DNA from: Psammoneis japonica
Lineage: Eukaryota
Direction: 5' to 3'
Assembly: GCA_008632985.1 (NCBI GenBank)
Contig: QPGO01000235.1
Span: forward strand, 62,001-103,048
DNA: 41,048 nucleotides
Below the pieces are notes generated by a model. It was not told the origin of the DNA, did no database searches, and worked only from the letters and a program-made list of their open reading frames with translations. Within the stretch, counting starts at the first letter, position 1, and each line of letters opens with the position of its first letter. The translations under genes were made by a program, and so were the position numbers. Of this stretch, positions 1 to 30,906 are shown in pieces.

Positions 1-752
1 AAGGAGACAAAAAGAAAAAGGGTAAAGGACAAACAAATGAAACAACTGAAAGATCTCACAATGAGGAAATGAACAACGAAATCAACGGGTGGAATGCCGC
101 AAAAAGCAACAAGAACTCTCGCACAAATTCCACGCAAAATTCACGCACCAAGGAAGACAACAACAAGGAGGAAAAACTCACACCTGATGACGAAAAACCC
201 TTTACACGAAGCAGAAAAAACAAAAAGGAGGAGAACTCAAAAGCAATCGCTCCGGCGAAAATTGCAATCACGGAAGAAGATCACATGCATGAAGAATCCT
301 CCGATGAAGACATCTTTCAACAACTCACAAGCAAGAATCACTCTACAGAATCCGATGAAGAAAACAAATGAGAAATGAATGAACAGGAGTCGCAGCAAAC
401 CGACACACTGCAAGATGAAGAAATCGAGGAAGAAGCGAATGACAGGGAGTCGCAGCGAATCGACACACCACAAGAAACTGAAGCCACCGACCAAACTGAA
501 GGAATTCCTTGGTGTCAGTTACGTCACAATGCATTTCTGACCATTCCACCATCCAAAAAGCCTCTGAAAGCAGTGGCCTCCATCCTGAGAGAATCCTTCG
601 CAACAATGCAAGAGATGCTTGGACAAGACGTTCGGATCGGCACATGGGACCCTGATCTAGAGGATGCTTTTGGTGAACCAACCTCTCCAGAAGACATTCT
701 GGAAGGATTGGCAAAGGAAAGAGAAATTCTAAGTGCTTTCCTGGGGGTGGAC

Positions 753-1913
753 CTCAGCTTGGTTTTGCCGTGTTTTTGAACAAAATTCCCCGGGATTGCC
801 ACCTTTTACCCTGTTTTTCTACGGAAAGGGTGAATTCCCGGGGAATCGACACAAATTGCCCTTCGTTGTGCATGCACCAAATGCACGAATAAAAAATTGT
901 GCATTGGCAATTCCCCGTTCTTCCCCTCTTGTACATTTCTACGTGTTCTGCGTGCCGGCATGCACAGAACCACACATCAGAATTGAAAATCAACAATCGC
1001 AACAAAAATGGGCAACACGCCATGGAGCGGCTCGCATCCCATTTATGACGGCTTTTGTCAAACAATGATGACACCAGTCAATCTAGTGAGTGACATTGCG
1101 ATTGACAGCATAAAATGTGAAATGAACAGATTCTTGATAGATTGTGTTTGGAAAAAAAAAGGTGTGTTGATGGATCGTTGCACTCATTCTTTTGTCGTGC
1201 GGTCACAAGTGCAAGCCACACGGCATCCACAGTAAAGTCCAAAGCAAAAGTAGAACTGTCTGTGGCAAATAAAAATGTGGCGGATTGAATGGCCTTGCTT
1301 GTTTTTCCAGTCGACACATCTTGTGTTCAGAATGAAGCGGATCGTTTAGAATCACTGTTGTCGTGCAGCTACAAATGCAAACCATGAGGCATCTAAAGCA
1401 AAGGCTCAGGCAAAAGTGGAACCTCACAAGGCTAATAAAAAATGTGGCAGATTGAGTGTTCATGCTCATTCTTTCCTTTGAACTGTCTCATTTGCAGAAC
1501 ACAGTGCATCGCGCATTCCTTCTTGTGTCGCGTGGTCACAAATGCAAACCACAAGGGCTCTAGAGCAAAGGACAAGGCAAAAATAGAACCTCACACAAGC
1601 AACATTGACACGGCTGATCCAATGGTAAAGTTTCTTCTTTCCTCACTCTGCCACAAGGGGCCGCTTTGTGTCGATGTGTCGATGCAATCATTGTCATCGT
1701 CGCTCGGTCATGGTGATAAAAGCACACCCGCCTAACTGTAATTACCACACATCACCGCATTCCATTCGTTTTTGTTCCCCTCCCCTGAGCCCTTTCAGGC
1801 ATTCCTTCCCGCAAAATTACCCTCATTTCCCGGGATTCCCCCAAAAGGGCAAGGCAACTTCCCCTCACCCTGGCCATTTTGGGGAATCCCCAAATGGGTG
1901 AAACCAAACCAAG
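753..1913. mobile_element. Non-autonomous TIR DNA transposon (MITE-like; hAT- or MULE-type TSD length)
   Basis: Flanked by direct repeat GGGGTGGACC (744-753 and 1913-1922; TSD 8 or 10 bp depending on boundary). Imperfect TIR CTCAGCTTGGTTTTGCC vs reverse complement of right end CTTGGTTTGGTTTCACC. Subterminal TTCCC(C)GGG(G)A motifs at both ends; no coding capacity. Confidence 0.8.
1185..1605 (+). repeat. Three degenerate ~165-bp tandem units inside the TIR element
   Basis: Recurrent gtcg..g.(t)acaa.tgcaa.cca...gcaaaa.t.gaac motif at ~1195, ~1360 and ~1527; aataaaaatgtggc.gattga follows the first two copies. Confidence 0.65.
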
Positions 1914-3150
1914 GGGTGGACCATCTCAACCCAAGAGTCAACGCCGAACACACAACATGTTGCCAACTTTGTTTCGTCCAGGTGTCAGAAGATTGCAGTC
2001 CCAGAATTGTGGCAGACTGTGGCGTGCAACTCTCAGGGATGTTTGCAGACATGGAAAAAGGCAAATTCTCCATTGGACGTAATCCCATGCCCTGTCAATT
2101 GACGCGCTTTGAATGCATTGGATGATGGTTGCATCAAAGCACCAAAACAATGAGCGAGCGGACATTGCACAAACAATTCAGCAAAGCTCTTGGCTCAGGC
2201 AGAGATTGCGACAGTCTTGGCATTCAATGGAGATCCATTGCAGGAAGGGACGGAAAAAGACCTGCCTTTGACAGGAACACACCGGACAAGAATCCGGAAG
2301 CTCTTCATGTCATCATCGAGTCCAGCAAAGTGCACAAAGTCAAGCTCGCGGCAGAATGACTGTGGAGGGCAGGTGCTCAGAAAAAAGTTCTGGGACTTGA
2401 ACTGCGCTTCGTTCCATGCCACTCGAACTCTGCCACACAGCATGCCTCAGACAAAACCAAAGAGAATGTCGACATGCTTCAAAAACGCCAACACTTCTTT
2501 TGCCAGAAAGTTGTTGGACAACTCAATTTCAGCTTTCTTGACAACCCGGACCATGAGATGCGTGTTGCTGGTGGAGAGACAACACTGTGACAGCATCTCA
2601 TGCAGAAACGGATGCCAGACCCCACCAACCCGGACAAGATCATTCCACTGATCCATCACCTTGATGTCAAGTGGAACAGACCAAATGATCATGCAATCAC
2701 ATTCCCGAGGAAATTGGTGGATCAAGTCTCACAAATGATCAACAACATCATCCCGGAATGTTTGCACATCTATGGTGCATCCGCAGAACCATGGTTCACG
2801 GCTGCAGGGATCGCCACGCACGAGCATTCGGGGTGCGATCCAGAAACTGGACTCACAACGTCCAAGGACAGTGAAATGTTGTCAGATGTGATCAAGGAAG
2901 ACCCCTGGGGCATGGAAGAGCAGTGGACGGATGAGAAAGCACAAACGAATGGAAAGGAAAGATGGAAGTCTTCTGATGGAAACAATCAGAGAAAAACAAG
3001 CGGACAGAAGGGAGCACAAGGCCCACCTGCAGCAGCACAGGAAGTCGCTGAAAAATTGTCTCAAGCTGCGGATGTAGAATCTGTTGGACATCTTAGAAAC
3101 AAGGATGACGACACACAGCATGCATCTGCCACGAGACGTTCAGTGACCTT

Positions 3151-3342
3151 TGTCAGCCTGTCTGCACCTGTCGCATGATGGACAGACTGGATGCGGATGA
3201 TGGCCAGACCATTCAGACAGACGAGCAGATCTCTCTGAGATCTGCTTCTCACTCTTTTCTTGCCAGCACTCGTGTTGTCAAAGTCCTGGCACTTTGGGGA
3301 GTCTTTAGACCATCGTCACCTCACACCTTTGGTGCTCTGTCA
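3151..3342 (+). repeat. 5' LTR of Copia 1
   Basis: TGTCAG...CTGTCA; 12 mismatches against 9768-9959 by manual alignment. Confidence 0.96.
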
Positions 3343-3352
3343 GGTTGTGGCC
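3343..3352 (+). promoter_or_regulatory. Primer-binding site of Copia 1 (GGTTGTGGCC, resembling the GGTTATGGGCCC half-tRNA-iMet type)
   Basis: Immediately follows the 5' LTR; resembles the copia-type PBS with a TA->TG change. Confidence 0.65.
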
Positions 3353-3519
3353 TTGCGCTGTGCCACAGACCTCTGCGCCAAGCTTTCCATTTTGATTCAT
3401 TTGTTTTGTGAGCCGACAGAGCGAGCCTCATCGTCTGATCCGACAACTTTTTGTCTGGCTTTCCCGGCATTTTTCATGACCGTAGAAACACACCAGATTG
3501 CTGCGCGCGCATGACCAAA

Positions 3520-5880
3520 AATGGCTCAACCAACTAAAACCATGGCATCTTCCGACCCCACTAAAGACGGGTTCCAATCCCAGGTGGGACTCCGTGTGAC
3601 ATTGGGCCCGTAGACTTCTGCGTGCAAGCTCTGCATTAAAGTTGTTAATCAACAAAAATGTGAATGATCGCCAACAGAAAAAGAGGCAATTTTGCGAACG
3701 TATCTCCTCCTTCACACTTGCAGCACATGAATGACAGTTTGCATGGTCATGTTCTGCAGACATTAAAGAATGTGCCCAGCGTGTTTTCATTGTCACAAAT
3801 GTTGAAAATAGAAAGCCTTTGGCTTCGCAAAACAGGAAGCATGAAACAATTTCGTAGAATGTCACACGTGGCCGTCTACGTGCGCGACATGCGGCGCGAT
3901 CCAAAAAACTGTTGATGTCACAGTTCAGTGCTGCGAGGTCCCACCCAGAGCTGGAACGCGTCTAAACCCGCTCTTCCGTCAATTGCAGAGATCTGCTACG
4001 AATTTGAGGCACATGCAACGATGCCACATCTACACAACTGCCTGAATGCGGTTTGTGCGGACTCCACAACCGATCTCGATCAATTTTTTGACGATCCAGA
4101 GCATGCGCAACCCAAGAAAGATTTTGCGGACATGATTCGTGATCATTTCATCTACGAAGCGTTCCCACCTTATGCAGCTGATCCTGCGGATGCAGAATCA
4201 ATCAAGACGATTGTGGATCAAGCCCCGTTTCGACTCATCGACCCTCAAAGGCCTCGTCTGGTCCGCTTGACGACTCCGATCTTGTCAAAGACGATCAAGA
4301 TGAACCTTCAGAACGGTGAACAATGCTTGTTCATTGCCACATCTGCCCAACACATGCATGTTGACCCGGACATGGTGTGGAACTGTTGCAACTGGAACGA
4401 GTTCTCTCTTACACCCTGTCAGCAGAAACAGCAGCCTCCGTCTCCTCCTCAGAAAACTGCAGGATCTAGCATGGTGAGTGTGAACGACTTGGTCAACGCT
4501 CTGCCTTCTGCAGTTTCTGCCAAGTCTCCTGGAAGCAATGCATCCTCCATTACATCCAAACACCTCTTCAATCCGAACACACTTCCAACAGATGTTCGTG
4601 AATGCTGTGACCGCAAAGAAGAAGGCAAAGTCACCCTCAAGAGCTCCCTCGTCCCCTGCGATCATGGATTCTGTCACTGTGTTGATGCATCCGATCGCAT
4701 CATCCTTGATGATGGCACCCTTTTCATCATGAGCTCGACCCCCGACCAGAAAATGTTGTTCAGGGAACCTCCTGCATGCCATGATGACTCTCCTCCTGGG
4801 ACACGCGCCTGGCACCAAAATTTCCAACGTCATGCCTTTGACTCGGGATGCTGCATGCATCCATTGTGGTGTTTTACCAAGGATCACGGTGGTGAGAAAG
4901 GTTTCAAGATCGGCAATGGCAAGGATGATGACTTGCCTCAATGCATGCACGTCCACTGCAAGGAAGCTCAGAGCTCTCTCCACAAGATTCTATCCAAGTC
5001 GGACATGTTCCCCAAGAACAGCAAGTGTCATCGGATTGTTGCATCATGCTGCGGCAACGGATGCAAGGCTCTCAAGCAGATCATCTACGAGAACCACCCT
5101 GCTTTCGACCACAATGCTCCAGGACTAGTTGATTCCCATCCTGTCCAAGGCAATCGATCATTGACGGACTGCCACATGATCTTCAATGATTTCCTACAGC
5201 CACGTGCCTGCACATTCAATGCAGACTCTACGTTGAGTGATCCACAAGAGATGACTGTCTTTGTCAAGAACACCAAGCATTCCAAGTTCTCATCTCGTGC
5301 TGCCAGAGATGAACGGAAGTCTCCAACCATGCAGAAGAAGCACACTGATGCACAGATTGTCGAGACTCTCTCTGATTTCCTCCGCCAGCCGGACAGCCCA
5401 TCCCTTGCCACCCGCCATCCAATCCCTGCCGCAAATGGAATCGAGCAAATGAGGACATGCGACACACGACCATTGATGTCAATGCTCTCCAGATCCCTGA
5501 GATCTCATCCATTGAACCTGTCGATGACTCTGCTGCTGAAGACACTGGTGCGGAATCCACACCTTCGGACACCTTTGACACTTTTTGCAACAAGTTGCAT
5601 GAACTCGAGGTCCCTTCCACAGACGAAGACCGCCTCCTCCATCATGTCTACTCGGCTTCAGTCCACAAACTCAAGGTTGCTCCAAACGAGGCTTCCAAGA
5701 AACCATGTCTCGTTTGCTCCGGTGAACACTCATTTGACGACTGTCCAGTCTTGAAGAACAACCCACACATCACCACTTTTGTCAATTCTTGAAGAGGGAA
5801 GCAGCTGTGCAAGCTTCTGAGTTCCAAGGACCCCAAGGACTGCTCCCCCCTCACCATGAAAACCCTGAAAATTTGACTGA
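3520..5880 (+). pseudogene. gag: Copia 1 gag (frameshifted) with CCHC zinc knuckle; start approximate
   Basis: ORF 3928-5754 plus frame 5457-5792 containing CLVCSGEHSFDDC (CX2CX3HX4C); lies between the PBS and the protease. Confidence 0.8.
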
Positions 5881-5985
5881 CTCTGGTGCCCCGCCCTCGG
5901 ATTTTCAATCGGGCCGTCGCAGCTAGTTTCGGATCTCCAACGCTGCCCGTTTTCTCCTCACCGAGACACCACTGATGTCAGCGGG

Positions 5986-8900
5986 ATGACCATGAAAGAG
6001 GGACTGACCGTCTCGTCATCTGTCGCTGAAATGCCTCTTTCTTCGCAGATTGACATGGATGCCACCCCCACCACTGCCATGAGGGTGTCATTTGACACTG
6101 GCAAATTGCCGGACGACGACCCTGCTCCTCAAGAAGACATTGTTGATGCTGCTCCTGCTCCGGATCCTTTGGAACAGGGGAGGGAAGACTCAGAAACACC
6201 AGAGTTTGAGGAATGCATTGACCTCACCTGTGATGACATGGCTGTCAAGGATGGCTTTGCTGCCGTCAACTCTGTTCGTGTTGCTCCAATCGACCCCCAC
6301 CAAGTCACCCAATCTCCTGAGCTGGAACTGCTGCGCTCCACTTGCTCTGTCAATGGAGTTAATTTTGCTCCAAATGAGCGTTGTGCTCAGTTGGATGCTG
6401 GTGCCAACATTGCGTGTGCAGGTGACCGTGACCTTCTTCATCGACACCAAGAATTCACCCCGTCCAATCCCTGCCCCCTTGCTGTCAATCCCGCCCTTGG
6501 CCATCAAGCTGTCCCAGTTGGATTCGGATGCCTGCAGATTCCTGCGGAGAACTCTGCCGGACATGTTGACGTTCGTGCACACTGCCACCCACAGATTCAA
6601 TCTACCTTGGTTGATGAACGACTTCTCCTTCGTCAAAATGGCACTCGTCGTGCAGATTGCAACGTTGATTGTATCCTCAAGTTCCATGATCTTGGTGCCT
6701 GCAAGTTTGTTGCACGACACCGACTGCGCAAGAGTCAGGACATCATCATTCATGGGAAGTTGATCAAAGGCAAATGTTTTACTCACCCTGTCATCCTCCC
6801 GGAATCTAACGACGCACTGGATGCATCTGTCAAGCGCCTCAAGACCAGTGACCCTTCTTTTGCCAATGAGTGTGAAGCGGTCTCTGCGTGTGTGATTGAG
6901 ACTTGTCGCACCCACCAACATGAAGCTCTTCGTGATGAACGCAAGTTGATCCCCCGAGCACATCAAGATGTCCCTTTCGAGAAGCATGCTGAGAAGAACA
7001 CTCCAGTCCAGTCTCTCAAGGCCGACACGGAACGTCTTTTATGGCATCAGCGGCTTGGTCACCCGAGTGATCAACACCTTCACAATGCCCACAAATGCGT
7101 GGAAGGTGTCCCCAAGTTTGCTCACGGAACTTCTCCCCTCAACACTTGTCCCACCTGTGCATGAGCAAAGCAGACAAAGGAACCTGCCGGTCCGAACACC
7201 ACTCTTGCTGCCACTCAACCCTGTCAAGGTCTTACGGTTGATTTTTCTTTCTCTGGCCTGCGCTCCAAGAACTCAGAGCGTGCCAAAGACCATGTTGGAT
7301 TGAATGGCGAGACTTGTTGGATCACCATTTACGATCATAAAACGAAGCGTCTCCATGGTGCAACTTGTGTCTCCAAGGCAACCCCTTTGAATTGGCTTTG
7401 CCACTTTCTGGAAGAGCACTCGCCAAAATGTCCCAACAAACATGTCTTCATGGATCAAGGAGGTGAATTGTGTCAAAATCCAGAGGTTTGGCGACTTTTC
7501 GAGGATGACTTTCACCATGCAATTCGTCCTGCGGGAAAAGATGCTTCAAATCAGAGTGGCCCAGTGGAACGCAGTCACTTGACTGTTGCCAATGCCATTC
7601 GGGTGATGCTCATTGGTGCCGATTTACCCACAAAATTCTGGCCATGTGCTTTTCATCATTTCACTCGGATCAACAACGCCGCGCCATCCCGTGGACAAAC
7701 TGCTGCTCCGATTGCTCTTGCCACTGGTCGAAAGGATGACTTCAAGAATTTCCGCACATTTGGTTGTCGAGTTTGGGCACGTGCTTCGAACCATCGTCCT
7801 GCCAAATTTTGCTCGGTCTCTCACAAAGGCATTTTCTTGGGCCATCTTCCGGACACCACCAAGAACATGCTCTGGCATGACACTGAGACTTCCCGTGTCA
7901 AGCTTGCCAAGCATGTTCGCTTCGATGAGGGCATGAACGACCTGTCCCGTGACTCGATTCCTCCGAATGTAGTCCACTTGGAGCGCACTCAAGATGGCAA
8001 AACTCCACCTGCCAAGACCTCAAGCATGATGGCACACGGCACTCCCGACAATGTTGTGATGGATCTCCCCGTGCTGCGTCGATTCTACATCGCCTGTGCT
8101 CGACACATTCTTTCTGTGTCAAACAACCCATCCAACGGATGTTTTTTGCTCTTGCTGCAACTGTGAGCTGCCCTGCACTTGGTGGTGATGCTCGTGACGC
8201 CTGTGCACATTCTCCACGGCCGTCACATCCTGTCCACGTTGCCACAGACAAAGCGCATGCTGCGTGGCACAAGGCTCGTTTTGGCATTGATTTGGACAGG
8301 AGCACGGTCCTTCCGATGCAACATGCACTTCAAGGACACCCAGAGGCCGGCGTGCTCTGGGAGACGCACATCAACGGCATTTTGTCTGATGTGAACTTGC
8401 TCTTTTGCAGCACTGCTCATGACAAATGCATCCATTCTGCCACTTTTGAAGGACACAAGGCATTGCTTCTCCGTCAGGTTGATGATTTCTCCCTCGCTTG
8501 TCCTGAAGAATCCATTGCGATCAAGATCTACGATGAGATTGGTGAGGCCCTCCAACTGGAATTGGAAACTTCTCCGCCCTTCAAGCATCTTGACATGATT
8601 GAAGAATTCAATGGTGTGGATGTCCATCAATGCAATGACTCCATTGGTGTTGCTGTTCACAGCTGTGTGCATCGGGTTTGTGCCTCGCATGGTTGGTCGA
8701 CACCGACGGACGAGGAACTCGATGATGACTGCAAGGCTGCACCTCTCCCGGTCGACTCTGTTCGTGAACTGCACACTGCCATTGGTCCAGCTGAAGGAAC
8801 CCCAGAGCATGCGGAGTTACAACAAGCTGCTGGATTCGGGTGCCGTGCCCCACTTGGTGAATTGTTGCATGCACATGTTGTCTGTCGATTGGATGTTGGG

Positions 8901-9588
8901 CATGGCATCACGACTCTGTCCAAGTTCTCCACTTGTCCTGCTGTGGTTCACTGCGATGCGCTCAAGGGCACATGCAAGCACCTTCGCCATGCCAAACATT
9001 GGGAATTGAACTGCAAGAAGCCTGCCCGAGACCCAAAACTACCCGCCTGCCCCTTCGAACGTCTCACCCCAGACCCAACCTTGCCATCGTTCCCTTGTCC
9101 TGAGTGTGATCATCAACTCGTTGCTTTCTTGGATGCTGCGCATGGCAATGACCTCCGCAACCATTGCTCTACAACTGGCCATGCTTGCATGTTGGCTGGC
9201 GCTGCCATGTCTTTTCGATGTAAGACCCAATCGGCGACAGCTGCGAGTTCCATGGAAGCTGAATTCCACGCGGCTGGCACTGCTGCCAAGCGCATGTCCT
9301 TTGCCTTCGTCACGTCCTGCAAGACCCAGGCTTCCCTCAGACTGAGCCAACCCTGCTGCACACTGACAATGAATCAGCAATCAAGATCATCAACCATTCG
9401 ATCCCGACCGAGCGCGCTCCCGTCACACTGAGATCCAGTTTTTTGTGATCCAAGAATGGAAGGACACGGGCAAGATTGTCACCAGACATGTCCCTGGCAT
9501 TGTCAACCCTGGCGATGACCTTGCCAAGGCTCTTGGCTGGGCACTGCACGCTCGCCATGCTCGACGCATGATGGGACACTGCTGTTGA
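5986..9588 (+). pseudogene. pol: Copia 1 pol: protease, integrase, RT, RNase H; stops, frameshifts and an apparent deletion between IN and RT
   Basis: AQLDAGAN (PR); LWHQRLGHP...CPTC (pre-integrase/Zn); FMDQGGE and NQSGPVERSH (IN); ALQGHPEAG and LLRQVDDF (RT); FLDAAHGND, SSMEAEF, TDNESA, NPGDDLAK (RH). Confidence 0.93.
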
Positions 9589-9758
9589 CACTTTTTTTTC
9601 TGCGGTGGCCTCCCTGCTGCGCACTGCCCCTTTTGTTTGATTGTGTGTTGGGCATGGACACTTGTCGTGTCCTGTGTGTTGTCTCTCTGTTTTTCCTCAC
9701 ATCATCCCTGTTCTTTGGTTTGATCTGCACTCTTCTACATGTTGAGATGTCACAGATC

Positions 9759-9767
9759 AGGGGAGGG
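9759..9767 (+). promoter_or_regulatory. Polypurine tract of Copia 1
   Basis: AGGGGAGGG abutting the 3' LTR. Confidence 0.85.
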
Positions 9768-9959
9768 TGTCAGCCTGTCTGCACCTGTCGCATGATGGAC
9801 AGACTGGATGCGGATGATGGCCAGACCATTTGGACAGACGAGCAGATCTCTCTGAGATCTGCTTCTCACTCTTTTCTTGCCAGTGCTCGTGTTGTCACAG
9901 TCCTGGCACTTTGGGGAGTCTTTAGACCATTGTCACCTCATGCCTTCAGCACTCTGTCA
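9768..9959 (+). repeat. 3' LTR of Copia 1
   Basis: Direct repeat of 3151-3342 followed by TSD ACCTT. Confidence 0.96.
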
Positions 9960-10289
9960 ACCTTTGATCTGGCAAATCTGGAAAATCATCACGAATGTGA
10001 ACAAGAGGAGGACGCATCCATCAAAACTGTGCCCTCAACCCGAGTGAAACTAAAGGAGGTACAAGAAATGAACAAAGCCCCAATTCAAGAATTAGAAAAG
10101 CTGCGAGTGGCAAAAGATCAAGACACTGGTCCGGCCCAGAAGGGCTCCAAGCAAAGAGACCCAGAAGACCATCCCAGCTCTCAGGCCGAGGGAGTGGGCC
10201 AGGATCCCCAGTCCCCACCATCCTCAGCGGTCACGACAACTGCCGCAAAAGGAGGATGTAAATCAAGACACCATTGGTCATCAATTGGA

Positions 10290-13200
10290 CGAGGCTTGGG
10301 GTGACAATGCGTCAATAAAATGACACAACGCCATCAGAGTTGCATTTCACAATGTTGGAGGGCTTCCAGTTTCACCTTCTTCTGAGGATGAACACAAAGG
10401 AATGATGAGTTGGATCACTGAACACCATTCTGACTTCACGGGCTTGACAGAGATCAATTTGAACTTCAAGCAAATCCCCAAACACGAGCAATGGAAAGAC
10501 TGCTGGAGAAGCCTTTCCAAACATGGTTCTCTCATCACAACCAACAAGCACTGCTCAACGGAAAACAAGAGGCAGTGCGGGGGAGTGGGACATCTCATAA
10601 CAAGGCATGTCAACCACCACCTAATTTCAAGTGGTGAAGACCCGTCGGGACCAGGCAGATGGACGTGGGTGCAACTGCGAGGCAAATCAGGAACACATGC
10701 AAGAATCGTCACAATGTGTTGACCGGTTGGGGACAACCAAGCTAATCCAGGTAGAGTCTGCTCTCAACAAGAAACACATCTCCTTTGCAAGAATGATTTG
10801 CGCTGCCCATGACGAGTGGCACTAGAAGACTTGGCAAGCCACATTAAGAAATGGCAGGCAGAGGGCGACCTCACAGCAGTTGGAGGCGATTTCAATGAAA
10901 ATGTCCAAGGGACAACCTTCATTGTGTGGTGTGGGTCGCTCCATCTTGTTGACGCATTGAAAACTGCGCATCCAGATCTTCCAGCAGTGGCAACATGCAA
11001 CAAGAATCAACCAAACATTCCGGTTGATGCAACTCTCATGTCGCCCGCCTTGGAAGTGACCAAGGCAGGAATGACAGGCTTTGGTGACTTCGACTGTGCT
11101 TCCGATCATTGCCTCTTATGGATTGACATTTCGAAACCCAGCGCACTGGGTTTCAACCCACCAAAGCTTTCCAAGACCATCTCAGACCGACTGGCAGGAA
11201 AATTAAATGACCCCCAAAGGTTGTGAAGAAGTGCGTCCAGCCAGTGGTGACAGAAATTTTGAAACAAGATCTGCCACAAAGAGCCATTCGATTGGAAAAC
11301 TCTGATGACTTTGGCCTTGCAGAACAACAAGAACACAAGCTGATCTTCCAACTAAATCATCAAATCAGGCTAGATGCAAAAGCACAATGCAGGAAACTGC
11401 ACATGAACGAGGTGGAATCCAGCAACGTCATTGACAAAGCATGAAAAGAGATTCACCTGTGGAGACCAGTGTACAAGCTGCACCATTTTTGGAGAGTCAG
11501 CATGAAGATCATCAACAGGCGGATGCAGCACACAGGAAGAATGGATGCACTTAGACTCCGATCCCACCAAGTGTCAGAAGAACACAAACTGGTGATGAAA
11601 AGACATTGCAAACTCAAGAAACAAGCAGCAAAACTTTGGCAAGATGAGTTCAAGATCCGATGTGCAAAACGAGCAGAAGAAAATGGCACGACCCAGGACA
11701 AAGAGGAATGAATCATTTGGCACAGCTGTCGACAAAAGAGAATGTTTTGTCACATCAAACGAGTGACTGGCAAATCTTGACCGTCCATTCAAACAGTCAC
11801 AGCACCAGGACCCGACGGGGTGGACAAGGCATTCTCAACTAAAGAGGGAATGGAAGAAGCATGCAAAGGCGAAGGACATTTTAGTTGTGGCCAAACTCGG
11901 ACAAGTCAGTGCACTGTTCCATTCATGAAAGAACCTCTCCTCAAAGATTTTGGCTGCAACTCGGACACTCCGGCTGTGAAAAAAGCATTAGAGGGAACAT
12001 GTGTCATTCCCCAAGGAGTGGATGGATGTGCAGCAAAATGTGTCAAGCAGCTCAAGCGACCAGAACCACCACTTCCGGAAATCCAACTGGACTGCACCGC
12101 TGAGGAACATGTCACGGGTTGGAAGAAAATGAAAGCCCACACAACTGGCAGCCCCTTTGGACTGACCTTTTTGGACTGCAAGGCAGGTTGCTCAGATGAA
12201 ACTCTGGTGGAATTCGACTCATGCATGTCAGCCATTCCGGCCAAACATGGGTGCGCACCCAGTTGTTGGACAAAGGCCACAGATGTCATGATCCCCAAGA
12301 AAACGGACTCATCACACGTTAAGAAACTCCAAATCATTGCATTGTTTGATGCCATGTACAACAAGATGAACAAGTGCATTGCAAGGGCTCTTGTCAACAA
12401 TGTGGAGACATGCAAAGCAATCCCATGGGAAGCGCATGGAAGCAGGAAGAGACATCAAGCAATTCTCTGTGCTCTCAACAAGGTGCTGATGGGAGATGTG
12501 CTCCGTCAATCACATTGACCGGGAGCCATCAATGGTGCAGATGCTAAATCATGCTGTGATCGCATCCTTCATGCGGCAGCCACCCCACACATGAGAAGGT
12601 TTGGAGCTGGAAAAGACGAGGTTTTTATGATGATTGGGACACTCACACAGATGAAGCACTGCGTGAGAACTGCATGCGGAGACTCAGCAGAACCATGCGG
12701 TGCCATTGAGATCCCATTGCAAGGAATTTTTCAAGGTCATGGAGCCACACCAGCCATTTGGCTCATGGTCAGCATCCCAACAATTGACATGCTCAAAGCA
12801 GAAGGCTGCGGCATTCGGGCATTAACACCGACATCCAAGAATGCGCACCACCATGTGTGTTGCACGTTTGTCGACGACACAGATCTTCCATGCTTCCCGG
12901 GCTCTGATGACTCAATGTGCGAGGATGTTCTAACTGAGATGCAAGAAATGTCCAATTGCTGGGAAGGAGGGATCAGGGCTGCAGGAGGTGTGCTGGTGCC
13001 AGAGAAAAGCCAGTGGTCCCTCACATCCTTCAAGTGGGAAAATGACCGCTGGACTTGTCAAAGCAAGGAGGAATCACCAGGCGACATCACCCACTGGATC
13101 ACGAGGGAAACAGGACAACGGCAGAGAGGATGGAGGTGTCGGAAGCAAGAGAAACGCTGGGGGTGCACATTGCACTGGACGGGAACTCGGATGCTCAGAT

Positions 13201-13938
13201 CAAGGCAATGGAAACCAAAGTGGGAAAATGGGTGGATCAAGCACAATGCGGACATCTCAATGGAACGGAGGCCTGGTTCTCTCTGACAGGTGGCAAACAT
13301 GAGATGCATTGAGCATCCACTGGCAGCTGCATCCCTGACAAAAGCGGAGTGTCAGCAAACAGAGAAACCGCTGCACGAAATGGCATTGCCGGCAATGGGA
13401 CATCCTTGGTCATTCCCCAAGAGAATTCTCTTTGCTCCCAAACAATTCAATGGACTGGGCTCATCGGAACTTTTTGTGAAACAGGGGATTGCTAATGTGG
13501 CTGTCTTTTTGCAACAAACAGACTCACCATTGATGACAGGGAAAGAGATGCAACACACATGCGAGACCATGGCACTCAAACTCGGGCATGGAGACAGAGT
13601 CTTCTCACTGGACTACAACAAATTTGCAATTTCAGTCACAAAGACATGGATCAAATCGCTTTGGCACTTCTGCTCATCATGCTTGATTGAATTGCTTGCT
13701 CTGACAATTGTGATTCCACTGCTGCGGCAAAATGACATGTGCTTGATGGAAGCATTTGAAGCACATGGCTGCAAAGGCAACCATCTCAGAAAGATCAACC
13801 TGTGTAGAATGTGGCTGAAAGCGGTGCGGTCATCAGACGCAGTGTCAGGAGATGGCAGAAGGATGCTCCCGGATTGTTGGCACAGCACTGCAACCTGTCA
13901 GACTGCGTGCAACTGGCCGAAGGCAAGGTGTCCCTCTG
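10290..13938 (+). pseudogene. LINE ORF2: apurinic endonuclease plus reverse transcriptase, 3'-truncated
   Basis: APE: RVAFHNVGG, GLTEIN, GRWTW, VGGDFNE, SDHCLLWID. RT: IPKK, LQIIALFDA, HGSRK, DAKSCCDRI, QGIFQGHG, FVDDTD, TLGV. Coding similarity stops where the triplicated block starts. Confidence 0.9.
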
Positions 13939-15067
13939 TGGCACATGAAGATGCTGTCATCCCAAGTGGTGCCACTCTATTTTGGCTGCAATGCACGTGA
14001 GCCTGTTCTTCGCCACCTGTTTTTCTGTTGATGTTGTTGGCGGTTGTTGGCTGTTTGTCTCGTGACACTCACGTGCAGGTGTGCTGCACATGGCAAGTGC
14101 TGAACATGAGTGTGTGTGTCACAACTCCTTTTGCTGCTGATGTTGTCGCCTGTCTTGTGACACTCAGTCCACTGTGAATTGTCACATTTCTGCATCAGAC
14201 AGGAGACAGGTGTTGATGTGTTGACAGGGAAGCGAATTCGATCTGTGGGGTTCCTTCATTTAGCTGAGAATGTGTTGCTGCTAAATGTGACATTGTTTTT
14301 GTTGCTTTCTTCTCATCAATCAACCCATTTCAGGAAACATGTCCCTCATTCAGGGATCGGGTCTATGGCACCACTGACAGCTTGCCAGAAAAATGCCACC
14401 TTTGGCTGGTTTGCCCCCTGTTTCTGCTGGAATGTCGTGCCACTTCCAGGGAACAGTTGCGACAGTGCATTGTTTGTGGCTTTTTGTCAATTCATCCTTT
14501 TACATTTAACCCACAGAGGCATGTCGCGGCATTTTTGTTGGTGTTTTCATGAAATTAGTTTCTTCAACTGTTGGTTCCAGCATCATTAAAATTCTAGACT
14601 CTAGAGCCCTCTCCACTCTAGCTAGAGCAGGGTGCACAGAGAGCAGCTGTTGAAGCAAAGAGTGCTAGACTGCTGCTCCAGCTCTGGCTGGAGAGCGAGT
14701 GGAGGGCCCGATCATGCAGCAGGTGCAGTGGTGTCTGCAGTGCGACGACCCCTTGGAAAGATTTGTTGCTGACGCGAGCGTGAGAGGATGATTTCAGAGC
14801 TTCTGATTGGCTGAATCGAGGCATTTTTTAAAAACCACGCGGTTTTTGCACTGCTCTCCCGGTGCAAATTCTACATGCGTGAATGCGAGCTCTCAATCAA
14901 ACGATCCAGTGCCATCTGCTGTGAGCCCTCACAGGTTTAGACCGAAAAGGGCAAGAAGAGGAGAAAAAGGAAAGAAAAAGAAAGAAGAGAGAGGAAAAGA
15001 GAAAAAAAGACAAAAGAGACTCTGTTGTTTCCCATTGCAACAAAAGCGTTCAAAAAAGCTGTGTTTT
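13939..15067 (+). repeat. Copy 1 of locally duplicated non-coding block
   Basis: Aligns over its length with 15736-16867 (offset ~1.8 kb). Confidence 0.93.
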
Positions 15068-15735
15068 CTGGACATCTGTGTTCCATTTTCATCATCCCCA
15101 TTTTAGACCCTTTTAGATGCGGAGCTCGTGATCATTTTAGATGATTTTAGATCGATTGTAGAGCTCGACCCTAAAGCGCGACATTTGTTCTACCAGAAAT
15201 GCGCACGCACAATTTACACCTGAAAATGCGCAGGGACCTGATTAAAAAACAGCGTCACGGAGATCCCCTCAGCCAATCAGAGCCAAGCATTTTTAAAAAA
15301 TCGCGCACTTTTGAAGAGGAACACGCATGGAAGCACACCCTGATGCGCATCACACCTTGAAGGGGGCTCCTCACGCGGATTCCTTGTTCCCCATTTTGCC
15401 TCACAACCCAACACGAGCTGAGAATCATCATCTCTCTCTCGTGAACGAAAATCATTGCAAAAACCAGGCCATGATGGCGGTGACAGGCAGTGTTGGACAT
15501 TGTCGCCAATGCGGTTGCCACCAACATTTCCAATGCAGCATGCATCACATGTTGCTCCATCACGTGCATCTGTGAAAAGAGAGGTGAGAATGAATGTAAA
15601 AATGGACAACAACTGCCTTGCACAACATTGCTGTCACTCACACCTGTTGCTCACTGCTTTCGTTGCCATTTTTGTTTTTTCTCAACAGATTTAAGAGCAC
15701 CTGACCCGCCCATTTCGTGGCAGTCTACAATCACA

Positions 15736-16867
15736 TGGCATGCAAAGATGCTGTCATCCCGAGTGGTGCCACTCCATTTTGGTTGCAATGCACGTGAGCC
15801 TGTTCTTCGCCACCTGTTTTTCTGTTGATGTTGTTGGCGGTTGTTGGCCATTTGTCTCGTGACGCTCACACACAGGTGTGCTGTGTGTGGTGAGCACTGA
15901 CCATGAGCGTGTGTCTCGCAACTCCTTTTGCTGCTGATGTTGTCGCCTGTCTTGCGACACTCAGTCCACTGTGAATTGTCACATTTCTGCATCAGACAGG
16001 AGACAGGTGTTGATGTGTTGACAGGGAAGCAAATTTGATCTGTGGGGTTCCTTCATTTAGCTGACATTGTGGTTGCTGCTAAATGTGACATTGTTTTTGG
16101 TGCTTTCTTCCCATCAATCAACCCATTTCAGGAAATGTGTCCCTCACTCAGGGATCGGGTCTACGGCACCACTGACAGCTTGCCAGAAAAATGCCACCTT
16201 TGGCTGGTTTGCCCCCTGTTTCTGCTAGAAAGTCGTGCCACTTCCGCGGAACAGTTGCGACAGTGCATTGTTTGTGGCTTTTTGTCGATTCGTCCTTTTG
16301 CATTTAACCTGCAGAGGCATGTCGCGGCATTTTTGTCAGTGTTTTCATGAAATTGGTTTCTTCAACTGTTGGTTCCAGCATCATTGACATTCTAGACTCT
16401 AGAGCCCTCTCTCTGCTCAAGCTAGAGCAGGGCACGTAGAGAGCAGCTGTTGAAGTAAAGAGCACTAGACTGCTGCTCTAGCTCCAGCTGGAGAGCGAGC
16501 AGAGGGCCCGATCACACAGCAGGTGCAGTGGTGTCTGCAGCACGATGACCCCTCCGAAAGATTTGTTGCTGACGTGAGCGTGAGAGGATGATTTCAGAGC
16601 TTCTGATTGGCTGAATCGAGGCATTTTTTAAAAACCACGCGGTTTTTGCACTGCTCTCCCGGTGCAAATTCTGCGTGCGTGAATGCAAGCTCTCGATTAA
16701 AAGATCCAGTGGCATCTGCTGTGAGCCCTCACAGGTTTAGACCGAAAAGGGCAAGAAGAGGAGAAAAAGGAAAGAAAAAGAAAGAAGAGAGAGGAAAAGA
16801 GAAAAAAAGACAAAAGAGACTCTGTTGTTTCCCATTGCAACAAAAGCGTTCAAAAAAGCTGTGTTTT
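15736..16867 (+). repeat. Copy 2 of duplicated block
   Basis: Direct repeat of 13939-15067, including an identical ~80-bp purine-rich tract. Confidence 0.93.
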
Positions 16868-17501
16868 GTGGTTGCTGCCAAATGTGACATTGTTTTTGGT
16901 GCTTTCTTCCCGTCAATCAACCCATTTCAGGAAATGTGTCCCTCATTCAGGGATCGGGTCTACGGCATCACTGACAGCTTGCCAGAAAAATGCCACCTTT
17001 GGCTGGTTTGCCCCCTGTTTCTGCTGGAACATCGTGCCACTTCCGGGGAACAGTTGCGACAGCACATTGTTTGTGGCTTTTTGTTGATTCATCCTTTTGC
17101 ATTTAACCCATGGAGGCATGTCACGGCATTTTTGTCAGTGTTTTCATGAAAACATTTTCTTCAACTGTTGGTTCCAGCATCATCAAAATTCTAGACTCTA
17201 GAGCCCTCTCCACTCCAGCTAGAGCAGGGTGCGCAGAGAGCAGCTGTTGAAGCAAAGAGTGCCAGACTGCTGCTCTAGCTCCAGCTAGAGAGCAAGCAGA
17301 GGGCCCGATCATGCAGCAGGCACAGTGGTGTCTGCAGTGCGATGACCCCTCCGAAAGATTTGTTGCTGACGCGAGTGTGAGAGGATGATTTCAGAGCTTC
17401 TGATTGGCTGAATCGAGGCATTTTTTAAAAACTGCGCGGTTTTCACACTGAATGCGAGCTCTCAATTAAAAGATCCAGTGACATCTGCTGTGAGCCCTCA
17501 C
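16868..17501 (+). repeat. Copy 3 (partial) of duplicated block
   Basis: Matches ~16068-16731 and ends at GTGAGCCCTCACA. Confidence 0.9.
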
Positions 17502-17533
17502 ACACAACAGGATCTTGTTGTTTTTGTCGTTTG

Positions 17534-17758
17534 TGTCAACACAGCACAAAATCATGCGCAATGCGTGCATGCTGCACTTGCGCACAAGATTTCCCGCCAT
17601 CGGTCATTCTCAACTTTTCTCACAATTACAACATCTGGTGCAACAAGACATTGGCAGCTTTGCTGATTGCACCGTCATTGTTGGCCCTCTTTGCCAGCAA
17701 TGCGCACGCCATTTGACCTCAGTCGACTTTTCCTGACTCTCAGACGAGAGTTGTCGCA
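17534..17758 (+). repeat. 5' LTR of Copia 2
   Basis: TGTCAACACAGC...GAGAGTTGTCGCA; same length and ends as 37519-37743. Confidence 0.92.
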
Positions 17759-20700
17759 GCATCAGAGGCCGCAACATGGTGTTGTTCACTTTCCTTTGGA
17801 AATTTTGGAACATTAAATTTGACAAATGCACGTTTTTTTAGTTAAATTCTGTTTCAAATGTGACAGTCAAGTTGAATTTGTTGTTGCCTTTTCATGTCTG
17901 TGATTGTCACCATTTTGTTTTGATTTAAATTTGCCAAAGACTTTCAACAAATCTTACATTGTTGAACAATGCATTTTGTGTTGTTCAATTTATCACATGT
18001 TTGTGGAAACGTTTGCTTTGACAGTGCTTTTCAATGGCTTCACCACAGCCTTGCATCACCACAGACAAGGGTGTTTCTTGTGTGCCCAAGTTGGCCACAT
18101 GAGCATTTGGCTCATTGTTTCCACCTGCACCCACCAGTTTTCCAGTCAACAGCTCCCTGCCTGCACTTTGGCACCTTTTCTACATGCGCAAAACTCTGCT
18201 CATTTCACAACAGCACACCCTCTCCCCAAAAAGCATTTGATGAGAGGGTGCACTGTTTTGTGATTCCTGTGCATTCTACGTGAATTGGCATCTGACTGTT
18301 GGCCATGGCGTCTAACAACTTTACCCCGTCTCACAACGAGGTTGACCCGGACCCTTCTTTCCAAATTTCCAAGGACTGCAATTTTGATGAAACAGAACAT
18401 TTCACCAATGGTTTTGGATTCAAATTGTTCCAACCCAAGCTCAAAAGCACAACTGCAATGCGTGCCTCCAAAAAGCAGTTTTTGGAGTCAACAAATTGGA
18501 CCCCCTCTCCAGAATTCCTTGCTCTTCCCTTCCTTTGCCACAAGCCAAAGTTGCGCCGTGTTCCACATGTTGCCGAAGTCATCCGCACCAACAACATTTT
18601 AAGGAAAACTCTTGGCTGTCCCAACATTTGGTCCTGCATCATGACTTGAGGTTGGTCCATTGAGAAATCCCGCCAACTGAAAGGCAAACATGTCCTGTGA
18701 TGTAAAAATCTCAAGGAGGCTCTCCATTTCTCCAAAACATCCGGAGAGACAGAAAAAGAACAGCAGAACCGTGTGCTTCTCCACCATGACATCCATGCGA
18801 TGGTAGAATTTGTTCACACGATCATTGCCGGAGATGACCCAAATGTATCCGGCAAGCCTTGTTTCCATTTTTTACGGTGCAAAAGTCTCCAAAGTTTGAT
18901 CAACGATCGAGCCCAAGACCTCCACAGTGCCCATTTTGTCACTGACATTGTCATGCGTTACGTTCAGCACAAACCCAAGGACATGGACCACTGGTTCCTG
19001 AAGATTTTTCGTCATGCCAACACCCAAAAGGAATGGCGCCTCTTTGTCAATGGCTTTCTGGTTGTGTGCGATGCCAATGATCCTGGTTCCCAGGCAGATG
19101 AGATCAAGGGGTTCCTTGCTGACCCAACCGGCAACACACAGAACATGGTGTACAAAGAAAAAATCAATTCCATGTTGAATCACAAATTTGGGAAGCATTG
19201 TCCCAAGGAGCAAAATGGCATCCGACCTGGGTGCAGCAAGCAGCTCACAATGCTTCATTGCAGATTGCGCAATCAGAGGGCCGACTGCATGGAAGACGAC
19301 AACAAACGACATTACAAATCTAAAACCAAACGCAAAATTAAGAGGATCTGCAAAGATGGCACCTGTTTGTACAATGGCAAGCACCCCCCCCACCTCCCGC
19401 CTTCTGCCTTTCTGCCTGCAACTGTCGTCTCAACGTCTCTTCTCACACCCCATGATTGTTCATGCCCCGCCAGAGCCTTCCTTGACCGTCCCCAACAAGA
19501 AGGCCAAGCCTGCATCTCGCTTGAAACCAGCACCTCCTTTGCTGTCTGGTGATGTGCCATTGTCTGGGGAGGCACACCAGACTCTCACCGCCAACCTTCC
19601 GTCACCCTCAGAAATTGTGGACAACTAAAAACCTGCTCCCACCTCCAAAGGTCCTTTGTCCAAACCTCATTCCTCTCCTCCATCTGTTTTGGCAAATCTT
19701 CCTGCGGTCACGTCTCCTCCCAGCAACCCCAACGACATGTCATGGCTGGACAAATTTACACTCCGCGATTGCTTTGACCCGTCCAAGTGTCGGCCCGCCA
19801 CCACTGAGGAAGTTTCTTCTCATTTGTCACACCTGCACATCATTGACAAAGCCACAGACACTGATCGGGTGCTTCATCATTCCGCCGCTGACTTTTACCT
19901 GGCGGACAACTTGCGGGAAAACTGGCACACGTTCTCAAACAATGCTCCTTTGTGTGATTCCACCAATGCATCTTGTGTCCGAACCGAGTGCCCTCCTAAC
20001 CTTGATCACTTCTCCAAGGAACTCTCCATCGCCCGACAAGCCAACTCATTCCTGCCCCTCTTCCATTTATTCTGTTGAAGGGCAAGTCCGATTTGAAACA
20101 GGACGGACTGGTTGCAGTTCGAAATGGCGAAGGACGCAGGACAAAGTTTGGTTGTGCAGGGCAAGCGCATCACCCAAAGAAGCCGGGTTCTGCCAAACTT
20201 GCCAAACCCAAGGGTGCCTGTGGACTTCATGTTTTTGAGTCCAATGATGACTTCAATGTAAACAAGTCATCCAAAATCAAGGCAATGGCAGCCGACATTC
20301 TCGACTCGATTCAGCTGTGCAAAAATGAGGTGGATCTGTGGAAACTGAGCAATCCCCCACCATTTAACTGGTCGCTTTGGTGCAAGGAGTGCTCAAAACA
20401 GTTGGGCAAGGACATGGGCTGTCTTTTCTTTAAATGCAAGGATGTCACTGTGCAGGGATTGTGCATTTCCCGGGGTCAAGACTGTGATGGTCATCATGAC
20501 ACAAAAAACTGCATCTGGCGTTGACACAGGAAGACAGCCGCAGGTTGCTTTTTTTGTTGTGGATGCCTTTGGTGACATCTGGTCCTTCAAGGTTGTTGCC
20601 AACAGCAGAGCCACCATTGGTGGATGCTGCAATGACCAGCATGACATGAAGCCTGTGCTTGCTCGCATGCACCACAATTGAGCTCAGCTTGATTTTGCAC

Positions 20701-21845
20701 TTAAAGACTTGGACTTGCAACACAATGGTCCCACCCACCCCGATGTGTTGCTTTCCAGCAGCACATTCAAGCATCTTTCCCTTGATGACAACAGGCTGTG
20801 GGACAATGTTCCAATTGGTGGAGGGGGCAATTCTTCATGCATTGAGGTGTGCATGGATTGGCTCAAGTTCCCAACATTCCCAGTCAGGGACTTCCACTTG
20901 TCTGCCCCAGTCACAGTGCTCTGCCGTTTCAAGAACATTGTGTGCAGATCTGGGCCCGACCCAAAACGAGTCATCCGTTTGGCAATCCATGCAAGTCATC
21001 CCAATGGATGTCACCGATTTTACTGTGTGGGGGGCATGTGTCTTCCTGACCTTTGTTGCAAAGGTGCTGACCCGTTTGTGAACTTTGCCGATTGCTTGAT
21101 GAACACATTTGGCATGTTGTTCGGTGACCCACAGGTTGGAAGGATCAGCCCCACCAATTTGACGTGTGAGAAATTTTCTGATGCATTTCTAGACCCGAGG
21201 TGCAGAGGCACCGCGAATGACCTTGTTGACAAAATGGTGGAAGAAATCCATGCTGCACTTCTCTGGATGAACGACAATGTTGACACCAATGAGTTCTGTC
21301 CCAACTTAATGGAACAACGGTGCAAGGCGGCGTGTGATGCTTGGGCAGACCGGGGAGCAGATTTCAGTGAGATTCATCTCATGTTGGTTCTGCAATGTCT
21401 GGTGCTGGCCGGTGTTGCAGTGAAGGACCATCCAAGACTCAACCACATTGTGTGTCCTGTCTTCAATTCCGGAGCTGCTGCACAACTTGGGCATGTCAAA
21501 CCCCAAGAAAGGCTGCTCATGCACCAAAGGACATCATCTGAGACAGGAACCAAAGAGCATGGTTGGAACGGAACTGAGCACAAACTTTGTGAGAATTCCA
21601 ACAAAAGCTGAACCTGCATTTTTGATTGTGTTTTCCACGGACCCTGTTCAGGACAAGACCTGTTTGCCTTCTCTCCCTCCCGCCAGCATCTCTGCAAGCC
21701 ACACGGGTTGACCGAGCACGGAATTTTGGAGTGTGTTGACGACGACCCCAACATTTACAAATCACCAGACAATGCGGAATTGGGCTCATCTGTGTGTGAA
21801 TCAGCCGGGCAAACAGATGGTGCCAGTGTTTTCTCTGTCAGTGAT

Positions 21846-22037
21846 GGACTTGCCGCAGACAACGAACTGAGCTCATTGTCTTTGGAGGAGTCTGGACTTG
21901 CCGCGGACAATGAACTTGGGTCATTGTCTTCAGAGGAGTCTGGACTTGCTGCGGACAATGAACTGAGCTCATTGTTTTTGGAGGAGTCTGGACTTGCCGC
22001 ACACAATGAACTAAGCTCATTGTCTTTGGAGGAGTCA
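21846..22037 (+). repeat. 4 x 48-bp in-frame tandem repeat (GLAADNELSSLSLEES)
   Basis: GGACTTGC units start at 21846, 21894, 21942 and 21990. Confidence 0.95.
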
Positions 22038-22098
22038 TTGTCGTCAGAGGAATGCTTGTGTCATGATTCTGAATGCCGTGTTCCAACTGTCGCGGCAG

Positions 22099-22302
22099 AT
22101 TCTGGTGTCGTTAAGTCGCTTGATCAAGAATCCGATGAAGAAGATTCAAGTTGCGTCTCCGTGTCAGATCGACCCGAGCCACCTGTCCTTTCACAAGTGC
22201 ATTCTGGCATCATCAAGTTGCTTGATCAAGAATCTGATGAAGAAGACTCAAGTTGCATCTCCATGTCAGATCGACCCGAGCCACCTGTCCTTTCACAAGT
22301 GC
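22099..22302 (+). repeat. 2 x 102-bp in-frame tandem repeat (acidic 34-aa unit)
   Basis: ATTCTGG...TTCACAAGTGC units start at 22099 and 22201. Confidence 0.95.
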
Positions 22303-22321
22303 AAGATTTTGACTTGGACGC

Positions 22322-23311: not shown

Positions 23312-23346
23312 ATTTCTGTTGCTGTTTTTGGATGCTCACATGCTTT

Positions 23347-26300: not shown

Positions 26301-26776
26301 TGATGGCACTGCAACCCAAGAGCAGAGATGTCATCATCAAACGGTGGTGACCATGGTGCATTGGTTCTGTCATGTTTGATGGCGGCGGGCCCAAGCCTGA
26401 TGTTCGCAACAGACACACCACGTCTGGACCGTCTCAGCCGTGGCAGTGACGAGTTGTCTGATGAGGAAGAAATGTCGAGATCAGCCGACCCACTTCTGCG
26501 AGAGAATTCGTTGCTGACATGGGAAGTTTTAGCCGCAATGCCAACAGACAATGCCGGCAATGGGCAGGTTGTGACTGCCTCACAATGTGACTTGTTTGAC
26601 CTCTCTCGAGCAAATGAAAAACATGGTGGGTTGTGATGGACATGGGTGAGCATCCTTTTGAAGGATCGTTTGCAACGCGGACATGCGACCGCACCATCCT
26701 CACCCTGCCAACCAGTGTTTCCTTCCATTTGTTGTTTCAGCAGGTTTGTGGGCTCCGCTGACACATGTGTGTTCAA
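23347..26776 (-). pseudogene. Plavaka-family DDE transposase with N-terminal zinc finger, frameshifted
   Basis: CPRCKRSFKRMLTHVHHNPPC; LTTYIDKT; LINGDTKSGD...C..C; ASNMMHLFE; GWKLQKLHELLH...NFDASLGES; CRTHPDC...GPVHDW (YRxHPxY...GPxYDW type). Confidence 0.85.
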
Positions 26777-30850: not shown

Positions 30851-30906
30851 TTTGCATGCAAAGCACAGCAGCGAGCATTCCGCTCCCACCTTCTCAGCCA
30901 GCCAGC

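Follow-up and report, generated by a model that had tools for sequence, protein, structure and literature searches.

The stretch of DNA analysed here (the window; 41,048 nt, positions 62,001 to 103,048 of the forward strand of contig QPGO01000235.1, Psammoneis japonica assembly GCA_008632985.1) contains a Copia retrotransposon whose two long terminal repeats (LTRs) differ almost exclusively at TpA- and CpG-class sites. The element lies on the forward strand between perfect 5-nt target-site duplications (ACCTT, 3146..3150 and 9960..9964). Its 192-nt LTRs, at 3151..3342 and 9768..9959, have TG...CA ends, and the 5′ copy retains a single TA, at 3306, in the resistant context YTAR (Y, pyrimidine; R, purine). 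The 5′ LTR is followed by a primer-binding site (PBS; 3343..3350, forward strand) that is mutated at its own TA step, while directly 5′ of the 3′ LTR lies a purine run, the polypurine tract (9759..9767, forward strand), which all 12 family copies possess, two having a single internal C. Between these lies a broken gag-pol region with four open frames on the forward strand (3916-5754, 5881-7164, 7165-8166 and 7953-9431). Pfam matches occur inside the element in Copia order (gag_pre-integrs, SH3, RVT_2); at 22.6 bits (E 9e-5), the RVT_2 match falls below its own cut-off, and the Pfam search gave no match to the integrase core. The paired TG...CA LTRs, 5-nt target-site duplication, PBS and polypurine tract of Ty1/Copia elements are all present, as is the domain order, with integrase-side domains 5′ of an RVT_2-type reverse transcriptase (RT). 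These features and the tRNA-Met primer site are shared with the CoDi-like Ty1/Copia elements of diatoms; in contrast with those, the window copy is dead and Tyr is nearly absent from it, with 7 Tyr among the 1,864 residues of its four frames compared to approximately 3% Tyr in intact copies. It is also ~390 nt shorter than its sister copies, and its frames are broken.

The whole window (1..41048) is a TpA-erased domain, with observed/expected ratios (O/E) of 0.12 for TpA, 1.51 for CpA, 1.64 for TpG and 0.54 for CpG. The 320 TA that remain are mostly in YTAR-type contexts, and ATAT does not occur. The edge of the domain at the window start is sharp, TpA O/E being 0.41-0.82 in the preceding 8 kb of the contig.

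Gapless alignment of the two LTRs reproduced the counts of the initial annotation: 12 of 192 nucleotides differ, comprising five CA/TG swaps (10 nt), one CG/TG mismatch and one A/C substitution. When 12 random differences were placed on this LTR in two sets of 100,000 simulations, more than three swaps never arose, and three swaps arose once in one set and twice in the other. The initial annotation had explained each swap by a palindromic ancestor, TA or CG, mutated on opposite strands after insertion. Ancestral states were read from 40 genomic LTR copies (the best 40 of 173 candidates), and at some sites from the 8 closest, and the third states found in these copies support that explanation. 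At 3214..3215 (CA/TG; partner 9831) a TpA ancestor can be read directly, with TA in 19, TG in 14, CA in 7 and CG in none of the 40 copies. The swap at 3333..3334 (TG/CA; partner 9950) is also TpA-class, with CA in 32, TG in 6, TA in 1 and CG in none of 40, the single TA belonging to the little-mutated 5′ LTR of copy L033. Neither TA nor CG was found at 3267..3268 (CA/TG; partner 9884; CA 27, TG 13 of 40) or at 3324..3325 (CA/TG; partner 9941; TG 5, CA 3 of the 8 closest), the latter site being present in 13 of 40 copies (CA 7, TG 6); genuine CG sites of this LTR are still CG in 32-35 of the 40 copies, which makes TA the probable ancestor at both. CpG decay on opposite strands is indicated at 3330..3331 (TG/CA; partner 9947; CG 24, TG 11, CA 4 of 40) and CpG decay likewise at the CG/TG mismatch, 3314..3315 (partner 9931; CG 6, TG 2 of the 8 closest), while at the ordinary A/C substitution (3281; partner 9898) other copies carry C. 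Across the 40 copies the LTR sites fall into two clean classes, one with TA, CA and TG nearly without CG, and one with a CG majority and minor CA or TG. As judged from these alignments, the proposed ancestry is mixed: four of the five swaps are assigned to the TpA class, and the fifth (3330) and the CG/TG mismatch (3314) to CpG decay.

These data bear on whether every swap is ordinary decay of 5-methylcytosine (5mC) at an ancestral CG, to which we give practically no credence. This explanation holds for 3330 and 3314, and among the 535 swap columns of 12 full-length family copies the third state is CG only in 201, TA only in 105, neither in 227 and both in 2. However, at the other class of site the third state is TA and never CG, TA-rich sister LTRs exist, and Tyr has been replaced by His or Cys, as described below. 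The annotated link to TpA therefore stands, with TA present at 3214 and 3333 rather than CG ancestral at every swap. In the window copy, 29 of 334 TpA-class sites are retained, versus 235 of 350 CpG-class sites.

To extend the comparison, 42 candidate elements (40 fetched and 2 in the window) were considered, exact LTR ends were set for 31, and the count was taken over the 27 LTR pairs with no more than one mismatch between their target-site duplications, which excluded L085, L086, L093 and L094. The 27 pairs, from six families and covering 6,786 columns, contain 87 swaps, 60 TA>TG, 58 TA>CA and 36 CpG-class differences, along with 24 other transitions and 10 transversions. TpA- or CpG-class changes thus make up 328 of 362 differing bases and ordinary changes 34, implying that raw LTR ages are inflated approximately tenfold. 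The annotated claims that context-specific mutation far outran background and would inflate LTR clocks are borne out both here and in the window pair, whose own 12-to-1 ratio rests on one event. Copy L033, which has matching target-site duplications, retains 17 TA in its 5′ LTR versus 3 in its 3′ LTR, and 14 differences between the two are TA versus TG or CA. Among the 11 family copies with a PBS, its TA step is TA in 1 (L033), TG in 8 and CA in 2, and with TA in place the PBS matches, by base complementarity, the anticodon loop of a tRNA-Met encoded in this genome (L235). In the 12 LTR pairs of the window's family, 152 sites have been lost from both LTRs, and at 55 of them the two outcomes disagree, compared to 39% expected under independence. 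The same direction is seen in the proteins. Of 17 Tyr positions that are conserved among 60 outside Copia proteins, 11 are His or Cys and none is Tyr in the eroded copy L117, and 13 are Tyr in its intact sister L092; the window's own pol, in a shallow alignment of 333 columns against outgroups, has 4 His or Cys and no Tyr at 8 conserved Tyr positions.

Reverse transcription copies both LTRs off one template, and RNA editing would affect one strand, so the change was made on the chromosome. This agrees with the initial annotation, which placed the mutation on integrated DNA rather than at reverse transcription: LTRs flanked by intact target-site duplications differ, and both strands are equally affected. 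The unmatched target-site duplications of L085 and L086, and the 91% of derived states shared by L086 and L115, could be taken to suggest editing of the RNA or during reverse transcription, exchange by recombination of eroded with intact copies, or faulty assembly, but we consider all of these very improbable given the equality of the strands (60 TA>TG versus 58 TA>CA), the differences between LTRs with intact target-site duplications, derived states that are unshared between copies, and a loss that is graded and context-dependent. Among the matches listed in a search of sequencing data, one DNA dataset shared 0.60 of the sequence words and none was RNA; the former may be the source sample and is not taken as support. 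Two other features of LTR organization were observed. L032 and L024, of the window's family, have tandem LTR arrangements, their two LTR matches being separated by 170 and 344 nt, and the Copia LTRs of L094-L100 start with AGT and mostly end with ACT or AGT, not TG...CA, with 5-nt target-site duplications.

The mutational spectrum was determined in a younger family, family C, comprising 19 copies, of which 10 were picked by intact RT; L086 was left out of the context-model and tract analyses. Its copies are at stages ranging from 3% to ~90% TpA loss, with other changes near or below 1%. Expressed per copy-site, and counting states rather than independent events, A>G reached 18.6% at TA and 0.60% elsewhere, and C>T reached 2.0% at CpG and 0.39% elsewhere, the historical excess of A>G at TA over other A>G being at least 30-fold. 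The preference is graded by the 3′ base, with TAC (25%) > TAT (21%) > TAG (14%) > TAA (10%) and 0.2-1.8% at other A, whereas C>T ran at 1.4-2.7% at CpG and 0.1-0.7% elsewhere. Changes at TA comprised 2,033 transitions versus 12 transversions, and TA almost never became CG (0-2 of 288 sites per copy). A weak leak of A>G was also detected at AAT (1.8%) and AAC (1.0%), and private A>G at NAY was 7.6-fold higher in eroded than in intact stretches, compared to 2.6-fold for non-CpG C>T. The same taste for a 3′ pyrimidine in this leak is expected of one enzyme with one motif.

TpA loss runs in kilobase tracts, peaking 0.5-2.5 kb into the element and fading 3′-ward in 15 of 18 family C copies. A universal 5′-first polarity was rejected, as an intact RT had been the basis for choosing 10 of the 19 copies, and other families include four elements in which the 3′ LTR is the more eroded one. 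Concordance of derived states among family C copies was 0.61 versus 0.66 expected; derived states are thus unshared beyond site bias, indicating that the tracts were not inherited or converted, one pair (L086/L115) apart. Among 11 copies, 5′ LTRs have partly escaped where the adjoining flank is unmutated (Spearman -0.64, p 0.035). A separate observation concerns L084, L085, L086 and L115: L085 and L086, whose own target-site duplications are unmatched, share the 3′ flank of L084 and have other 5′ flanks, and L086 and L115 have a common 5′ flank end in addition to their shared derived states, so that they are either recombinants or assembly misjoins.

CpG decay accompanies the loss of TpA. In family C, private CpG changes were 11-fold higher in eroded than in intact stretches, yet CpG loss mostly stayed at or below ~10% until TpA was nearly gone and reached ~30% in the most eroded copy, so TpA loss precedes CpG decay. 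CpG depletion as an arithmetic by-product of TA loss was rejected because it accounts only for a fall in O/E from 0.94 to 0.80, and real CpG decay is needed for the remainder. Deamination of 5mC at CpG covers one of the five swaps, the CG/TG mismatch and approximately one-quarter to one-third of family CpG sites lost; in young copies it proceeds at approximately one-ninth of the pace of TpA loss, and it is incapable of eliminating TA. According to the available text of PMC9998398, diatom Copia elements are CG-methylated by DNMT5, and by analogy such methylation would fit the CpG component. The co-location of the two losses, together with the leak at AAT and AAC, might be taken to indicate error-prone patch repair around repaired 5mC lesions by a polymerase-eta-type enzyme with a W-A motif (W, A or T). 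We regard this as improbable, since TA changed at 10-25% versus 0.3-1.8% for AA, transversions at TA numbered 12 against 2,033 transitions, and TpA loss comes before CpG loss; the polymerase-eta spectrum is, moreover, far less strict.

Host genes are largely outside the reach of the process. TpA O/E is ~0.5-0.6 in gene loci, versus 0.12 in the window. Two silicon-transporter copies on one contig, 99.85% alike over 3.4 kb, keep 131 and 130 TA, and a second near-identical gene pair, which is 99.4% alike across 5.5 kb, retains 204 and 208 TA; both pairs may be very recent or haplotig duplicates. The actin paralogue L103 (G000:C162:133188-134063), ~84% identical to L101, has no Tyr among 292 residues and sits inside a TpA- and CpG-erased domain, so that a host-type gene is affected there. 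It seems that transposon-rich location, rather than duplication or foreign origin, sets the target. The host genome has 24 silicon-transporter matches (best 697 bits) and an intronless actin frame; silicon transporters are a diatom hallmark, and the host is a diatom. The chlorarachniophyte Bigelowiella natans, suspected at first from the preprint discussed below, was rejected as the host on these two findings. One transporter locus of normal TpA content, L147 (G000:C38:226311-230342), has a single frame of 1,511 residues that encodes three silicon-transporter domains. Taken together, the data leave very little doubt about the post-insertion timing, the direction from TA to TG or CA, the involvement of both strands, the order of contexts, the tract structure and the restriction to transposon-rich domains.

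The account that probably explains the whole best, in our assessment, is erasure of TpA in silent domains by a recruited adenine deaminase. An inserted element would join a putatively silent, transposon-rich chromatin domain, where TpA would be converted to TpG or CpA by a single transition on either strand of the chromosomal DNA, over many cell generations, until ~90% of sites were gone. In the same domain CpG would decay more slowly (C to T, presumably at 5mC). Each LTR would lose each TA independently, with approximately one-third of sites ending as CA in one and TG in the other, and it is this independent loss that would produce the CA/TG swaps. Tyr codons would become His or Cys codons and the primer site would be spoiled, so the element would die by missense changes and not by stops. 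As for the chemistry, we lean slightly towards a zinc deaminase with the TadA/ADAT fold, brought in by silencing marks, that would deaminate A in TA(C/T) to hypoxanthine, a base that is read as G. An adenine deaminase is favoured by the single transition class, the strict 5′ T, the graded 3′ preference kept in the leak, and the parallel with Bigelowiella natans discussed below. That the erasure serves as genome defence and is not a by-product appears likely.

Several points weigh against this explanation. TA is palindromic, so A>G in TAY is indistinguishable by sequence from T>C in RTA. A search of the host genome for deaminases gave nine matches, none marked out as a candidate. A TadA-like protein has Asp where DNA-editing variants have Asn, and the ADAR2 hot spot is UAG, versus TAC here (available passages of PMC10661471); the other deaminase matches look like housekeeping enzymes. 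Similarity searches were the source of the copies, with 40 of 173, 150 of 804 and 40 of 60 candidates scored, and this manner of selection enriches for the less eroded ones; L118-L123 were not used in any count. Eroded stretches also have ~2.6-2.9-fold more non-CpG C>T and transversions, meaning that part of the contrast between hot and cold stretches is age. Strand-coordinated bursts were rejected, since none of the 8 copies gave a significant runs test (p 0.09-0.93); one lightly mutated family C copy had 7 CA versus 1 TG. Transcription-strand bias was likewise rejected, since an excess of TG (1,028 to 761) vanished after flanks were modelled, leaving a strand term of -0.03, i.e., none. Nothing in these results points to single-stranded DNA or to single bursts. 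TadA is known to prefer TA and TAC, a preference that is not stated in the available passages of PMC10661471. One further deaminase was noted at L132:313-1785 on the reverse strand, where a single frame encodes DIOX_N and 2OG-Fe(II) oxygenase domains together with a zinc deaminase domain, which we take to be guanine-deaminase-like; the protein looks metabolic.

Two other chemical routes remain live alongside adenine deamination. In one, an oxygenase would oxidize T in R-T-A to 5-hydroxymethyl- and then 5-formyluracil, which pairs with G. The symmetry of the sequence makes this T-centred reading equal to the A-centred one, modified thymine occurs on transposons in dinoflagellates, and formyluracil miscodes; a Tet_JBP search of the host genome, however, gave no candidates, and as the same search was without a match in any control genome it does not show absence. 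We consider this route unlikely. Somewhat more doubtful still is a methylate-then-mutate route resembling repeat-induced point mutation (RIP), whereby an N6-adenine methyltransferase or a changed DNMT4/RID-type enzyme would mark or destabilize a base in TA. It would suit the co-location of TpA loss with CpG decay, the relatedness of diatom DNMT4 to fungal RID (available text of PMC9998398), and the several C5-methyltransferase domains in the host genome, a search for which gave no marked candidate. RID, however, works on cytosine and makes TpA, as described in the accessible part of PMC7296669, and the host of the B. natans preprint lies outside the diatoms. Some C5-methyltransferase frames (L142-L144, L154 and L155; G000:C297 and C301) were themselves seen in TpA-erased repeats that are 96% alike over 5.4 kb and differ mostly at CpG-class sites, possibly representing a transposon-borne methyltransferase.

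The closest parallel to TpA erasure by a recruited adenine deaminase is provided by Mettrop et al. (bioRxiv 10.64898/2026.01.13.699255), to the available main text of which the following statements refer. In the chlorarachniophyte B. natans, TpA>TpG/CpA occurs in two viral inserts at ~6e-7 per site per generation, ~1000-fold above background and active only in some lines, and the same spectrum was seen de novo in integrated DNA of nucleocytoplasmic large DNA viruses (NCLDV) as well as of virophages. An ADAT-type adenosine deaminase was proposed only, transposon targeting was suggested from composition alone, and the text has no instance of diatom, LTR, Copia, CpG or context. The two cases share TpA>TpG/CpA transitions in chromosomal DNA, on both strands, with TpA depletion and an excess of CpA and TpG, and in both the process is confined to silent foreign-type regions with host genes spared, the silence being putative here. 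The 118 TA versus TG or CA differences in our 27 LTR pairs are of the B. natans type. In contrast with that system, the host here is a diatom, the targets are LTR retrotransposons, shown copy by copy, and TpA O/E is 0.03-0.15 over tens of kilobases, compared to 0.45 in the B. natans NCLDV region. That main text does not cover the preference for flanking bases, the polarity of tracts or a link to CpG decay; a de novo rate is available only there, our data being historical states. What was already known is thus a TpA process from one preprint, in viral inserts of an unrelated alga; the diatom host and the retrotransposon target are new. In the literature searched, from which most subscription papers fell outside, no report of the TpA process beyond that preprint was found, and none in diatoms.

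RIP, known from Neurospora and other ascomycetes, shares dinucleotide-specific transitions, transposons crippled in place and a tie to heterochromatin silencing, but it converts C to T, makes TpA, is premeiotic and strand-clustered, and is triggered by duplication (accessible part of PMC7296669). Here, TpA is destroyed, non-CpG C>T is at a background of 0.39%, none of 8 copies showed strand clustering, and gene duplicates that are near-identical keep their TA. RIP as an account was therefore rejected on direction, trigger and strand clustering. The available text of PMC7884421 concerns RIP indices only.

Evidence for the process beyond this genome is uneven. Among the 60 outside Copia proteins, 3 have His or Cys at 6-11 of the 17 conserved Tyr positions, and of 120 protein homologues, 2 have less than 2% Tyr. 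One of the three proteins with His or Cys at conserved Tyr positions, when searched back, proved foreign to this genome, with a best identity of 64% (best 50 of 1,108 candidates). The replacement of Tyr by His or Cys in 3 of 60 outside proteins, one from another genome, makes further hosts likely. On the other hand, none of 78 metagenome Copia loci (the best 78 of 383, a selection favouring intact copies) was strongly TpA-depleted, with a median O/E of 0.63 and a lowest value of 0.34, at a locus of 61% GC, and no 1-kb bin fell below 0.2. The metagenome loci thus give no support for wide spread, and spread beyond this genome is uncertain. A more speculative proposal, which we advance tentatively and would not bet on at even odds, is that diatoms and chlorarachniophytes share a natural DNA adenine editor that would be recruited to silent chromatin bearing methylation, would start slightly within the element and extend for kilobases, and would deaminate A in TA(C/T) on both strands of duplex DNA, as an A-to-G counterpart of RIP across stramenopile, alveolate and rhizarian (SAR) eukaryotes.

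These results extend the TpA process to diatom retrotransposons with direct evidence from within single insertions. In a group for which knockout tools exist, they also provide handles on the putative enzyme, namely the order TAC>TAT>TAG>TAA, the lack of strand bias, the kilobase tracts and the link with CpG decay. An adenine deaminase that naturally acts on DNA, if confirmed, would be notable, since such editors had to be engineered. For this genome, LTR ages and transposon phylogenies are distorted ~tenfold unless TpA- and CpG-class sites are masked.

The window holds a second Copia element on the forward strand (17534..37743), with LTRs at 17534-17758 and 37519-37743 and the target-site duplication GTTTG. 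Its 225-nt LTR pair has 14 swaps, 8 CpG-class differences and 4 transversions, and it is older than the first element. Its LTRs lie 20 kb apart, which suggests that it probably contains nested insertions. Elsewhere in the window, long direct repeats that are 80-94% alike, with spacings of ~1,800 and ~800 nt, occupy 13939-17505, and tandem arrays with periods of 48, 102, ~184 and ~167 nt were seen at 21845-22302, 39529-40209 and 1193-1595.

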